A program made the translations under genes and the position numbers. 64,000 nucleotides of DNA from an uncultured Methanosarcinales archaeon (GTDB lineage Archaea > Nanobdellota > Nanobdellia > Woesearchaeales > CAXGTL01). The DNA lies in assembly GCA_964535955.1 (NCBI GenBank), contig CAZHVK010000007.1, forward strand, positions 4,118-68,117, in the 5' to 3' direction. Positions within the stretch are counted from its first letter, which is position 1; each line of letters begins with the position of its first letter. The notes under the pieces were generated by a model, which worked only from the letters and a program-made list of their open reading frames with translations, did not search any database and was not told the DNA's origin. Below are positions 3,185 to 61,849 of this stretch, in pieces.

Positions 3185-3722
3185 GATAGAAGAAAATTAT
3201 AAAGAATTGGTGAAAGTTAAAGCTGTTAAAGAAGATTCTATTATTCAATCTCATCTTAAGTGGCAGAAAGCTGTAAATGATTTGTTACTGGCTGAGAAAT
3301 TACTACAAATTTCTACAAATAAAAAACTAAAAGAGGTATTAAGTCTCGGTGAAGACAATACTTTTTTTGATTGGGTTGTTGTTTGTTCTTATTTTTCTAT
3401 ATTTCATGCAACCCAAGCATTGTTAGGTTTGAAAAAGATCAAAATAATTAATAGATTGCATCATGCTACATTGACATCTTTTGCAAAACATTTTATTATC
3501 AATGATGAGTTAGCAGAAGAATTATTCTTTATTTATGAAGATGCTGAGACAAAAGCAAAAGACTTGTTAGACATACTTGAGGAAGAAAAAGGCAAGAGAG
3601 GATTGTTTCAATATCACAGATTGTCAAGACATAATCTTGATCCTGCAAAAGACTCTGTTGAAAATGCTAAGAAATTCCTCGCCACAGTACAAGAAGTTCT
3701 GAAGAAGAACAAGGTAATATAA
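3168..3722 (+). CDS. HEPN-like partner of the nucleotidyltransferase
   Basis: helical protein, HEPN-like FHATQALLGLKK segment and a C-proximal RGLFQYH (R-x5-H); translationally coupled to the MNT gene. Confidence 0.45.
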   Translation: MLQHNKIEENYKELVKVKAVKEDSIIQSHLKWQKAVNDLLLAEKLLQISTNKKLKEVLSLGEDNTFFDWVVVCSYFSIFHATQALLGLKKIKIINRLHHATLTSFAKHFIINDELAEELFFIYEDAETKAKDLLDILEEEKGKRGLFQYHRLSRHNLDPAKDSVENAKKFLATVQEVLKKNKVI

Positions 3723-39585: not shown

Positions 39586-39735
39586 CCCTACCTAGCTCAA
39601 TTGGTCAGAGCGCACGGCTGTTTTCCTTATACAGGAAGGCTAAAGATGTGTTCGCTATTTGACTGGGTGCATACCTTGGATGAAAAATAGTCAGCCGGTA
39701 CCGTGAGGTTCCTGGTTCGAGTCCGGGGGTGGGGA
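39586..39735 (+). tRNA. intron-containing tRNA, probably tRNA-Asn(GUU), ~76-nt intron in the anticodon loop
   Basis: acceptor CCCTACC/GGTGGGG, D-arm GCTC..GAGC, anticodon stem CACGG/CCGTG interrupted 39624-39699, T-arm CCTGG TTCGAGT CCGGG. Confidence 0.5.
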
Positions 39736-41232: not shown

Positions 41233-41408
41233 TAAAGAAAGATAACAAAATAAAAATAAACATTTTCTACTGAAAAAACCAAAACCTTTATAAATAGAAA
41301 AAGTTGCTACCTATACAATGGTAAAGGTGCTTTCTGAAGGAAAAAACAACTATTTATAGAGTCTTTTCTCTCATGAAACACCTTAAGGCAACAATAGACC
41401 GCATAATG

Positions 41409-41554
41409 CCTTGGTGGTGTAGTTGGTCTATCATGGGGCCCTGTCGAAGCTTTATAAAGCAAAAACAGTTTTAAATAGACTGTTTTAGCTCATTGCGGAT
41501 AGGCCCCGACTCGGGTTCAAATTCATTTTATGATGAAAGTCCCGGCCAGGGCGT
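41409..41554 (+). tRNA. tRNA-Asp(GUC) with two introns (54 nt in anticodon loop, ~18 nt in T-loop region)
   Basis: acceptor GCCTTGG/CCAGGGC, D-arm GTG-TAGTTGGTCTAT-CAT (Glu/Asp-type), anticodon stem GGGCC/GGCCC with loop CTGTCG-A, BHB-compatible pairing CTGT/GCGG; T-arm TCGGG TTCAAAT [insert] CCCGG. Confidence 0.6.
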
Positions 41555-41646
41555 TAAATAACAAAAAATCAAGGCTGATAAGACATTTCAGCCTAATAAT
41601 AGGGCAGTGGTGGCTAAGATTTCATAAACCTCACTAGCCCTACAAT

Positions 41647-41757
41647 GGGCTGGTGGCTCAGTCTGGATTTATACAGATATGAAGGACAATAGAGCACTCC
41701 ACTTTTAATGGAGTGGTCGCGGGTTCGAAAACAACATCGAAAATCCCGTCCGGCCCA
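41647..41757 (+). tRNA. tRNA-Lys(UUU) with two non-canonical introns (24 nt in D-loop, ~14 nt in T-loop region)
   Basis: acceptor GGGCTGG/CCGGCCC, D-stem GCTC/GAGC separated by 32 nt, anticodon arm CTCCA CTTTTAA TGGAG, T-arm GCGGG TTCGAAA [ACAACATCGAAAAT] CCCGT. Confidence 0.6.
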
Positions 41758-59983: not shown

Positions 59984-60178
59984 ATGGAAGGAACAGTAAA
60001 ATTTTTTAATGAAAGAAAAGGTTTCGGATTCGTTATTGATGATGAAACTGGAAAAGATTTTTTTGTACATCAATCAGCCTTAGATGAAGGTGTTGTATTG
60101 CGTGATGGCGATAAAGTTACATTTGATGTAGAACAAGGAGATCGTGGACCAAAAGCAGTTAATGTAAAATTAGTTTAA
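59984..60178 (+). CDS. cspA: cold shock protein (CspA family, bacterial type)
   Basis: [15 protein letters not shown] (RNP1) and FVHQSAL (RNP2); RBS GGAGGT. Confidence 0.9.
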
Positions 60179-60335
60179 TAATAAAACTTATTTCTAAGTT
60201 TATTTTTTAAATTATTTGATTGATTTGTGTTAGTTTTTATTCTTTTTTTTGTTTTCTTTATTTTAATTTATATTAGTTTTTATTATTTTCTATAGTAATT
60301 ATAATAGAAATATATCTTTAATCTAAAAATAAAGA

Positions 60336-60596
60336 CTGCGGCAGCCGAGACTTTCGATGGAGGCCAATAAATTGAATTAGTGCATTTAGAATACACCTTG
60401 GACCAAAGTTTGAGCCACATTTCGAATTTTCGAATACTCAGCCTTTGAGAGTATTTCTCGAATTGCAACCGTGGCAGGGTTGCGTCCTCTATGGCGATCC
60501 TTATTTTCAGTGTGGGACTAAGTGAGCATAGCGAGCGCATGTCGCACTATCCCAATCGATCCTGATAAGGATCGTAGCCATTAGACTACTGCCGCA
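60336..60596 (-). ncRNA. candidate structured ncRNA of unknown class (GC-rich island with terminal helix GCGGCAG/CTGCCGC)
   Basis: local GC well above flanks; multiple perfect hairpins (GCAACC..GGTTGC, GATCC..GGATC, AATACTC..GAGTATT, GCGA..TCGC); T-rich tract follows on minus strand; overlapping 85-aa ORF judged spurious. Confidence 0.4.
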
Positions 60597-60629
60597 TTAG
60601 ATAAATATAAATGCCACAAAATCATTGCA

Positions 60630-60719
60630 TGGGTCTGGCCGGACTCGAACCGGCGATTAACGCCTATCTTTTCCTAATGGAATGTAAGGGCGCTGTCATA
60701 GCCACTAGACCACAAACCC
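60630..60719 (-). tRNA. tRNA-Val(UAC) with ~17-nt anticodon-loop intron
   Basis: reverse complement: GGGTTTG TG GTC-TAGTGGCTAT-GAC A GCGCC CTTACA[intron]A GGCGT TAAT GCCGG TTCGAGT CCGGC CAGACCC A. Confidence 0.7.
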
Positions 60720-60778: not shown

Positions 60779-61591
60779 TTGTCTTGTTTTATTCTTATTA
60801 TCATGTACACACTAAACCTAAACCCAACACTACTTGAACTCGGACAATTAGAAATAAGATGGTATGGTTTGATATATGCATTTGGTTTTATCTTATTTTA
60901 TTTGACAATGTATTATGTTTCTAAAAAGAATCTTATTGAAAATCTAGATAAGAATAATGTTGACAATTATGTTTTATACATAATTCTTGGTGTTGTTATC
61001 TGTGCAAGGTTTTTTGACTTTGTATTTTATAATTTTAAAACAATATTTACAGATCCATTAGAGATTCTAAAGATCTGGCACGGTGGACTAAGTTTTCATG
61101 GAGCATTAATAGGATTTATTCTTGGCACATGGTTATTCTGCAAAAAATATAAAATCAATATCTGGAAAACATTAGATGTTTCAGCCATTGTTGTAATTTT
61201 TGCTGTAATGCTAGGCAGAATTGGAAACTTAATTAATGCAGAATTAATTGGAACCCCATTTAATGGATCATGGTGTGTTATATTTCCAAACTATGATACA
61301 GTTTGTAGACACCCTTATCCAATCTATGCAGCTCTATCCCATTTATTATTGTTCTTATATTTAATCTTTTTACTTTACAAAAACAAAGAGAATATCAAAG
61401 ACTATCTGGGTAAGAGGAATTTAACAATTAGTTTTTTCATAGGTTATGGAATCTTAAGAATAATTACAGATATATGGAAAGTTGATAATATAGTACTAGG
61501 AATCAAGACAGGACAATGGTTAAGTTTGGTAATGGTCTTGATTGGTATTTTATTAATTATATTCAACAAAAGAAAACAAAAACCTTTATAA
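60779..61591 (+). CDS. lgt: prolipoprotein diacylglyceryl transferase (Lgt)-like membrane protein
   Basis: EIRWYGLIYAFGFILFY N-terminal motif and Lgt signature GRIGNLINAELIGTP; 7 predicted TM. Confidence 0.65.
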   Translation: MSCFILIIMYTLNLNPTLLELGQLEIRWYGLIYAFGFILFYLTMYYVSKKNLIENLDKNNVDNYVLYIILGVVICARFFDFVFYNFKTIFTDPLEILKIWHGGLSFHGALIGFILGTWLFCKKYKINIWKTLDVSAIVVIFAVMLGRIGNLINAELIGTPFNGSWCVIFPNYDTVCRHPYPIYAALSHLLLFLYLIFLLYKNKENIKDYLGKRNLTISFFIGYGILRIITDIWKVDNIVLGIKTGQWLSLVMVLIGILLIIFNKRKQKPL

Positions 61592-61619: not shown

Positions 61620-61715
61620 GGGCCTGTAGCTGAGTCTGGCCAACTTTATCAAGTTGGATCAGGATGGCGCGACATTGCGTTCGCTCTTCTCACTTCAGTC
61701 CCGCAATAAAACATC
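61620..61715 (+). other. tRNA-like 5' segment (duplicate of the tRNA-Ile 5' end) with embedded 7-bp hairpin; pseudo- or split-tRNA candidate
   Basis: first 12 nt GGGCCTGTAGCT identical to the downstream tRNA; no matching 3' acceptor strand before the next gene; hairpin CCAACTT-TATC-AAGTTGG. Confidence 0.35.
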
Positions 61716-61849
61716 GGGCCTGTAGCTTAGTCTGGTGGAGCGCCGGTCTTATATGGCAGTGTTCCCAACAACTGGCTTAAGTTAGCCGGTGGTCGTGCGA
61801 GGATAACATTATCAGTGTTGTTCCACGAATTCAAATCGCGCCAGGCCCA
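61716..61849 (+). tRNA. tRNA-Ile(UAU) candidate with two 30-nt introns (anticodon loop 37/38 and T-arm)
   Basis: acceptor GGGCCTG/CAGGCCC, D-arm GCTT..GAGC, anticodon stem CCGGT/GCCGG, loop CTTATA|intron|A with BHB pairing CTTA/TAAG; T-stem GTGCG [30-nt insert] TTCAAAT CGCGC. Confidence 0.5.

Follow-up and report, generated by a model that had tools for sequence, protein, structure and literature searches.

Archaeal tRNA genes are known to be interrupted by introns of the bulge-helix-bulge (BHB) type, which are removed by an endonuclease. Such introns have been documented at positions 20/21, 53/54 and 59/60, among others, with up to three in one gene, and they range from 11 to 129 nt with medians of 12–25 nt (PMC4090602). 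In the DPANN archaea, Woesearchaeota included, disruption of tRNA genes is marked and the predicted tRNA sets are incomplete, and an EndA of the L3-loop α4 type has been reported from several of the DPANN lineages whose tRNA genes are heavily disrupted (PMC5829648). Undetected disrupted tRNA genes have been explicitly predicted for genomes of Woesearchaeota and their relatives (PMC3239211, PMC5829648). Two further precedents bear on the introns themselves: the box C/D RNA within tRNA-Trp introns (Omer 2000; Clouet d'Orval 2001; Singh 2004; as cited in PMC4090602) and the intron transposition described in Thermoproteales (PMC4090602). Here we describe a GC-rich locus of a 64-kb stretch of DNA (the window, meaning that whole stretch), lying at 60337–60595 on the minus strand. 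With a probability of roughly 0.93, judging from sequence and comparison, we read it as the tRNA-Gly(GCC) gene of a Woesearchaeota-like DPANN archaeon, composed of four exons and three BHB introns.

The gene resembles the BHB-intron tRNA genes of other archaea in the type of its introns, in their presumed removal by endonuclease, in their positions and in their number, and its tRNA likewise becomes recognizable only after splicing in silico (PMC4090602). It differs in its host, an AT-rich DPANN archaeon, and in proportion: introns make up 185 of its 259 nt (71%), and two of them, at 85 and 70 nt, greatly exceed the typical median of 12–25 nt, albeit within the known range of 11–129 nt. It thus represents a familiar type of gene, remarkable for degree alone. 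With the disrupted tRNA genes of ARMAN-2 and the Nanoarchaeota (PMC3239211, PMC5829648) it shares the superphylum, relaxed BHB motifs and non-canonical intron positions. Broad-specificity splicing endonucleases are known from those organisms. In the literature on disrupted DPANN tRNA genes, we did not find this specific tRNA-Gly architecture or its conserved introns described.

The first-pass annotation of the window had placed a structured RNA of ~260 nt, whose class it could not name, at 60336–60596. On the minus strand this interval opens GCGGCAGTAGTCTAATGGCTAC and closes GTCTCGGCTGCCGCA; the region was rightly chosen, but the true ends of the gene lie 1 nt inside each coordinate. All of the sequence features that drew attention to it hold. 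GCGGCAG, from 60595 on, pairs perfectly with the CTGCCGC that precedes the A at 60337, and this 7-bp terminal helix, whose 5′ end had been called tRNA-like, corresponds to a tRNA acceptor stem. GC content is 0.38–0.50 inside the region versus 0.11–0.30 in the flanks (mean of the window, 0.30). The hairpins CGATCC/GGATCG, CAACC/GGTTG, AATACTC/GAGTATT and GGTGTATT/AATGCACT are present and perfect or nearly so, and a T-tract, TTTATTTTT, follows on the minus strand at 60325–60333, where it is likely to be an archaeal oligo-T terminator. The minimum free energy (MFE) of the region is –90.4 kcal/mol, compared to –67.1 ± 4.7 kcal/mol for 200 dinucleotide shuffles, none of which equals it (z = –4.98), in line with the proposal of a structured non-coding RNA gene. 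The adjoining gene on the 5′ side is indeed a tRNA-Val gene, tRNA-Val(TAC). The annotation had also seen no signatures of RNase P RNA or signal recognition particle (SRP) RNA in the region, and rightly so, as the Rfam covariance models for both gave no match at E ≤ 10. What falls is the notion of one RNA of ~260 nt and unknown class: the region can be spliced in silico to tRNA-Gly(GCC).

Exon 1 (GCGGCAGTAGTCTAATGGCTA; 60575–60595 (–), 21 nt) supplies the 5′ strand of the acceptor stem (GCGGCAG), U8 and A9, the 5′ strand of the D-stem (GUCU) and the D-loop AAUGGCUA, with G18 and G19. Exon 2 (60457–60489 (–), 33 nt) continues with the 3′ strand of the D-stem (GGAC), a perfect anticodon arm (CAACC-CTGCCAC-GGTTG) carrying the anticodon GCC at 60473–60475 (–), the variable loop CAAT and the 5′ strand of the T-stem (TCGAG). 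Exon 3, TTCGAA, is only 6 nt long (60421–60426 (–)) and corresponds to T-loop positions 54–59. Exon 4 (TCTCGGCTGCCGCA; 60337–60350 (–), 14 nt) holds U60, the 3′ strands of the T-stem and acceptor stem, and the discriminator A73, the far 3′ end reading CUCGG-CUGCCGC-A. CCA is absent from the gene, where GTC comes next instead. Deleting the three introns at the sites predicted from the BHB motifs yields a 74-nt product, GCGGCAGTAGTCTAATGGCTAGAGGACGCAACCCTGCCACGGTTGCAATTCGAGTTCGAATCTCGGCTGCCGCA, which ARAGORN calls as tRNA-Gly(gcc). This product carries U8, A14, G18G19, U33, G53-C61, the T-loop UUCGAAU and A73, and its D-arm and T-loop are formed only by splicing. The T arm was not resolvable from the window alone; orthologues in relatives (see below) fix it as TCGAG/CTCGG with two T-arm introns. 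Two other pairings, CGAGA/TCTCG and CTGAG/CTCGG, were rejected, since they would either disrupt G53-C61 or put a surplus base in front of the acceptor stem.

At all three junctions, a 4-bp central helix lies between two 3-nt bulges, one on each strand, and standard cleavage (2|1 in each bulge) gives exactly the exon joins used. Intron 1 (60490–60574 (–), 85 nt) interrupts the D-loop at about position 20/21, with the central helix UGGC/GCCA, the bulges UA|C and UA|G, and a perfect inner helix of 9 + 3 bp (GATCCTTAT/ATAAGGATC); it carries a sequence that we call the D element. Intron 2 (60427–60456 (–), 30 nt) lies at position 53/54, where the window's tRNA-Ile gene also has an intron. Its central helix is UUCG/CGAA, its bulges are AG|A and AA|U, and its inner hairpin AATACTC/GAGTATT is a perfect 7 bp. 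The flanking helices are strong at introns 1 and 2. Intron 3 (60351–60420 (–), 70 nt), which we call the T element, lies at position 59/60 and uses the T-stem as its outer helix, with UUCG/CGAA as central helix and AA|A and AG|U as bulges. Both T-arm introns end in a repeat of the T-loop (..UUCGAAAA|UUCGAA|A..CAUCGAAAG|U). The hexamer UUCGAA is its own complement, and it is thus its repetition at the 3′ ends of these introns that supplies the central BHB helix. A fold constrained to contain all proposed helices has –79.3 kcal/mol, versus –89.7 kcal/mol for the unconstrained MFE, and is energetically plausible.

Introns in the neighboring tRNA genes, at 60630–60719 and 61716–61849 (the latter with one in the T arm), had led us to suspect an archaeon with non-canonical tRNA introns. 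The gene next to tRNA-Gly on the other side of tRNA-Val, lgt (60779–61591; PF01790), has homologues, at most 67% identical, in Woesearchaeota and Nanoarchaeota, and the organism was placed there on this basis. Through three of the Lgt homologues we reached loci in synteny with the window (L001/L002, L003/L004 and L005), all with the gene order tRNA-Val, tRNA-Gly, Lgt, tRNA-Ile, tRNA-Glu. In L001, L003 and L005, tRNA-Gly is found between tRNA-Val/Lgt and the genes for a metallophosphoesterase and ScpA. At another eight loci with Lgt homologues, either the tRNA cluster was no longer syntenic or the flanks were too short. A fifth lineage, L084, came from a DNA-pattern scan of genome contigs with 16 specified bases; the pattern was too loose, and L084 is the sole genuine find among the matches listed, the others being chance. 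The analogous metagenome scan returned no new lineage, only a duplicate of L003 and one chance match, and two scans of viral contigs gave nothing real. L084 (contig CAYWFN010000006.1) has 28% GC and belongs to a metagenome-assembled genome labelled 'uncultured Methanosarcinales archaeon', probably by mis-binning; the anticodon loop of its tRNA-Gly is CGGCCA, with G at position 33.

The orthologous genes of L001, L003 and L005 also splice in silico to products that ARAGORN calls as tRNA-Gly(gcc), and L084 has the same tRNA-Gly with both long introns. The conservation and covariation in relatives that the first-pass annotation had asked for were thus found, in four other lineages. In the acceptor stem, G3-C70 is replaced by A3-U70. 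In the anticodon stem, CAACC/GGTTG becomes GTACC/GGTAT, and the T-stem occurs as TCGAG/CTCGG, CAGGG/CCCTG and CGGGG/CCCCG. The BHB helices vary in the same fashion: for intron 1, the window and L001 share the central helix UGGC/GCCA, while L005 has CGGC/GCCG and L003 has UGGU/AUCA, and the outer helix of intron 3 is UCGAG/CUCGG, CCGAG/CUCGG or CAGGG/CCCUG. Introns 1 and 3 are thereby well supported by comparison. The intron set differs by lineage. Intron 2 is absent at the same place in L001, L003 and L084, the D-loop intron of L003 is only 23 nt long, and L005 has an intron at the canonical 37/38 site and none in the T-loop, its T arm being uninterrupted (CGGGG-TTCGAAT-CCCCG). Variation of this sort, with the exons left intact, is what would be expected of real introns.

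Several points weigh against our interpretation. At 10 nt the D-loop of the spliced product is long, and its splice register may be off by one. The inner helix of intron 3 is weak (3–5 pairs with mismatches), and the motif is therefore of the relaxed BHB type, for which a broad-specificity endonuclease would be needed. Intron 2 is seen in the window lineage only and hence lacks comparative support. Moreover, its BHB competes with the T-stem for the same nucleotides and therefore cannot coexist with it, although the T-stem is the outer helix of intron 3; this clash implies ordered or relaxed-motif splicing. The Rfam tRNA model (RF00005) gives the unspliced gene no score, either with the gathering threshold or with E ≤ 10, as is expected where 185 nt of introns break up the match. 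Finally, the comparison draws on five lineages only.

One could suppose that the locus is a degenerate tRNA-Gly pseudogene broken by three insertions, with coincidental BHB motifs. That the gene is invisible to Rfam and ARAGORN, that 71% of it is inserted sequence, and that an apparent fossil of an exon plus intron exists 1 kb away, upstream of tRNA-Ile, would all fit such decay. However, all three insertions are bounded by correctly phased motifs of a 4-bp helix and 3-nt bulges, and exact removal of the introns restores every invariant tRNA nucleotide. The compensatory changes described above maintain both exons and BHB helices in four other lineages, no second tRNA-Gly(GCC) was found at the syntenic loci, and other essential tRNAs in the window are split likewise. 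These data make a pseudogene very unlikely.

Two further explanations fare worse still. A single structured RNA of ~260 nt whose class is new or has been overlooked, for instance a divergent RNase P, SRP or other ribonucleoprotein RNA, would account for the strong folding z-score, the GC-rich island, and the closing helix with its many hairpins. Rfam gave no match to the unspliced sequence of 60337–60595 at the gathering threshold or at E ≤ 10, which rules out all of the curated families. The lengths of the orthologues (259, 218, 162 and 174 nt) vary over a range of 162–259 nt, while the conserved part consists of exactly the tRNA exon blocks, and internal blocks come and go by lineage in the manner of introns. 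A new class of this length was excluded on the grounds of this variable length and exact exon conservation, and we regard it as scarcely credible. As for protein coding, the 85-aa open reading frame (ORF) on the minus strand that had been reported (60283–60540) does exist, and its length is the one thing that speaks for it. It has no Pfam match, starts within intron 1 and crosses tRNA exons. Its frame is broken by 1-nt indels between lineages (GGTC-AAC versus GGTCCAAG; CTCAA-C versus CTCAAAT), and the translations part ways after ~6 residues. The chance that this ORF explains the region is close to negligible.

Given a split tRNA-Gly(GCC) gene, its expression can be sketched as follows. The locus would be transcribed, possibly jointly with tRNA-Val 34 nt upstream, up to the oligo-T tract. 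In the precursor, each exon–intron boundary pair would fold as a 4-bp helix between two 3-nt bulges; archaeal splicing endonuclease would cut 3′ of the second bulge nucleotide on both strands, and an RtcB-type ligase would seal the exons. The excised introns would probably be circularized by RtcB, as is usual in archaea, and post-transcriptional addition of CCA would complete a normal 74-nt tRNA. Unlike the anatomy, the in silico product and the comparative support given above, which the sequences show, the steps of transcription, cleavage, ligation and circularization follow what is established for archaeal tRNAs in general (PMC4090602). In all lineages, the 32–67-nt spacer between tRNA-Val and tRNA-Gly (60596–60629 (–) in the window) contains a conserved box, TTTTGTGGCATTTA. 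It is too near the 5′ end of tRNA-Gly to qualify plainly as a TATA box; the motif UGUGGC is common to this box and the beginning of intron 3.

Split genes of this kind largely escape standard tools. ARAGORN, in default and long-intron modes, did not detect the unspliced tRNA-Gly gene, and the same gene is invisible when unspliced in three of the four lineages concerned (window, L001, L003, L005). For L005, ARAGORN in intron mode does report tRNA-Gly(gcc), with a single 81-nt intron placed unlike the two that we removed. Introns, 11 altogether, interrupt six of the window's seven tRNA genes, and all six can be spliced in silico to tRNAs. At its thresholds Rfam finds three of the seven, and ARAGORN with default settings finds two. 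A gathering-threshold scan of 13 loci from relatives (75 kb) with Rfam gave no match, even though L001, L003 and L005 hold four tRNA genes each, all four of them split in each locus and the tRNA-Val gene of L001 by three introns. Rfam thus finds none of the 12 tRNA genes in these three loci. ARAGORN also mislabels what it sees, calling tRNA-Val(TAC) as Glu(ttc) by default and tRNA-Ile(TAT) as Pro(tgg) in long-intron mode; the Val and Ile identities were settled by orthologues and splicing in silico. The apparent tRNA deficits of DPANN genomes, together with the metabolic or translational inferences made from them, may accordingly result from the use of tools that are blind to introns, and GC-rich islands in AT-rich genomes offer a cheap route to the missing genes.

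We next consider whether intron 3 could have a function of its own. The T element occurs once per lineage (nhmmer), and its mean pairwise identity (0.82) is close to that of the exons (0.87). Other orthologous introns are less conserved (0.42 for Val 37/38, 0.72 for Ile 37/38, 0.37 for the Ile T-arm intron), and the Val-Gly spacer stands at 0.61. The first ~25 nt of the element (AUGUGGCUCAAAYUUUGGUCAAC) are almost invariant in all five lineages. In L005, with its uninterrupted T arm, the T element is found 8 nt downstream of tRNA-Gly (locus 3420–3520, minus strand), enclosed in a stem of 11 perfect base pairs, CACCAACCAGA/TTTGGTTGGTG, that has its own intact BHB. Its excision would leave CACCAACCAGA-TTCGAAA-TTTGGTTGGTG, a hairpin resembling a tRNA minihelix. 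The conservation and the L005 cassette together suggest selection on the intron RNA itself.

These observations raise the possibility that the gene is a tRNA-Gly gene as described and that its 59/60 intron (60351–60420) is, in addition, a functional and probably circular small RNA, for which the tRNA T-loop or a stand-alone BHB hairpin serves merely as the processing vehicle. The near-exon level of conservation (0.82 versus 0.87, against 0.37–0.72 for other introns), the nearly invariant first ~25 nt, and a cassette in L005 that looks maintained rather than decaying all favor this idea. Against it, the element shows no C/D or H/ACA boxes and no K-turn on inspection and has no match in Rfam at E ≤ 10. 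Its predicted stems are invariant and so offer no covariation, and a search of the window for antisense targets matched only the element itself. Part of the conservation is accounted for by the BHB requirement at both of its ends, and what is seen in L005 may be no more than a recent relic of a tRNA duplication. The element is also known from just five lineages, the metagenome scan having added none and the genome scan only L084 among the matches listed. On balance we think a functional intron unlikely, if worth keeping in mind.

The closest analogy would be the box C/D RNA of tRNA-Trp introns. That intron, too, is long (~65 nt) and kept across species, presumably because its RNA is useful, whereas the D-loop and 59/60 introns of tRNA-Gly lack correctly spaced C, D, C′ and D′ boxes, and no guide-target complementarity was found for them. 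Intron 3 has neither a C nor a D box, and no Rfam match to a small nucleolar RNA or small RNA family overlaps the gene. In the test for H/ACA features, intron 3 formed an irregular hairpin with neither a K-turn nor a K-loop, and it has UCA/CAU at the place of the ACA box. For intron 1, inspection found a lone CUGA, a degenerate C-box-like GGGAUAG and no C′ or D′ boxes. We rejected interpretations of introns 1 and 3 in terms of C/D boxes, H/ACA features or K-turns, with boxes absent or mis-spaced and features not common to all copies. RNAduplex gave no convincing conserved duplex between D and T elements. A peptide-coding intron 3, prompted by its AUG start and by an L001 copy that is stop-free in any frame, was rejected as well: indels shift the frame, and the window copy has UAA triplets.

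The L005 cassette also recalls stand-alone BHB cassettes, namely the processing stems of rRNA and the circular RNAs flanked by BHB motifs (PMC7714728, PMC12558985), in that the T element lies in a long perfect BHB stem. Like those RNAs, it would be released and probably circularized. It differs from them in that its stem is like a tRNA minihelix (an acceptor-like and a T-arm-like part, with the loop UUCGAAA) and in that its cargo is an RNA of ~65 nt. Were the 59/60 intron functional, the kinds of useful RNA known from within archaeal tRNA introns would number just two. The T element may be an undescribed small, probably circular RNA of Woesearchaeota, and the D element a second, mobile family of intron-borne RNA; we offer this pair of assignments tentatively and with more doubt than belief.

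The D element consists, in order, of a hairpin with the loop UUAUCA, the motif GGGAUAG, and a 7-bp stem with a variable insert. In intron 1 the hairpin is CGATCC-TTATCA-GGATCG (60557–60574 (–)). Five of its seven predicted pairs show compensatory changes over five copies, while the loop TTATCA is constant. The stem, GUGCGAC...GUCCCAC (60512–60547 (–)), has six of seven pairs formed around the variable insert. A second copy of the element lies at 61640–61711 (+), near tRNA-Ile, with a local alignment score of 68 compared to a shuffle maximum of 33; its stem reads GCGCGAC/GUCCCGC, a change from U-A to C-G. This copy of the element is flanked on either side by the initial 20 nt of tRNA-Ile, the near-exact duplicate at 61620–61639 (+) preceding it, and the promoter-like box TTTATAAAC, which is conserved before tRNA-Ile in relatives, is here upstream of the first exon-1 copy. 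Splicing of tRNA-Ile from the upstream duplicate was rejected, as no complementary helix is available for a BHB, and the duplicate was therefore treated as a fossil. We take the stretch 61620–61715 (+) for a likely fossil of exon 1 and its D-loop intron that stayed behind in the 5′ leader when tRNA-Ile lost the intron. In L003, tRNA-Ile has a proper D-loop intron of the D-element family. The intron of a further gene, that for tRNA-His or -Asn, scores 29 against the D element, a value reached by 3 of 500 shuffles, and it is a probable, diverged third member of the family.

The long D-loop introns repeat the 3′ arm of the hairpin (AGGATCG...AGGATCG), whereas L003 has just the 23-nt hairpin intron; it looks as though the D element was inserted into an older, short hairpin intron. 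The presence of the family in tRNA-Gly and beside tRNA-Ile suggests intron mobility. The Thermoproteales case (PMC4090602) is similar in that related introns occur in different tRNA genes and are present or absent in the orthologues of close relatives. It is dissimilar in phylum, in that the element here appears to have been inserted into a short hairpin intron, and in that one copy is an apparent fossil in a 5′ leader. The locus displays several apparent stages of intron evolution among close lineages: gain at 53/54, expansion of the D-loop intron by insertion of an element, fossilization of an exon plus intron in a 5′ leader, and relocation of an intron to a stand-alone cassette. Hairpins with UUAUCA(G) or UUAUACA loops and covarying stems recur in many introns that otherwise look unrelated (60557–60574, 61640–61657, 61806–61826, 39622–39636, L003 and L005). 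These loops could reflect a shared origin or protein binding.

Among the other tRNA genes of the window, tRNA-Val(TAC) (60630–60719 (–)) has a canonical intron of 17 nt, and tRNA-Ile(TAT) (61716–61849 (+)) has two introns. Three more were located via further GC-rich islands, where Rfam at E ≤ 1 had missed the split tRNA genes. The gene for tRNA-Asp(GTC) (41408–41553 (+)) has introns of 53 nt at 37/38 and 18 nt at 59/60; it, too, is missed by ARAGORN when unspliced and is called after splicing in silico. That for tRNA-Lys(TTT) (41647–41757 (+)) has a 23-nt intron in the D-loop and a 14-nt intron at 59/60, and ARAGORN calls it only once spliced in silico. The remaining gene (39586–39735 (+)) has one anticodon-loop intron of 76–77 nt, the splice register of which is ambiguous: the central helix can be GGCU/AGCC or GCUG/CAGC, one giving tRNA-His(GTG) and the other tRNA-Asn(GTT). 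This tRNA has an unusual first pair, C1-G72, and would carry U37.

Just 5′ of tRNA-Lys, at 41603–41643 (+), is the hairpin UAGGGCAGUGGUGGCUAAG...CCUCACUAGCCCUA, which holds a near-copy of the Lys 5′ exon (GGGC..TGGTGGCT.AG), echoing the exon-1 duplicate before tRNA-Ile. Upstream of tRNA-Asp lies a GC-rich stem, AAGGTG...CACCTT (41318–41388 (+)), without a match in Rfam, that encloses ~50 nt with CUGA and AUGAAA. Beside the putative terminator of tRNA-Gly and convergent with it, a gene at 59984–60178 (+) encodes a 64-aa cold-shock-domain protein (PF00313, E = 7e-22).

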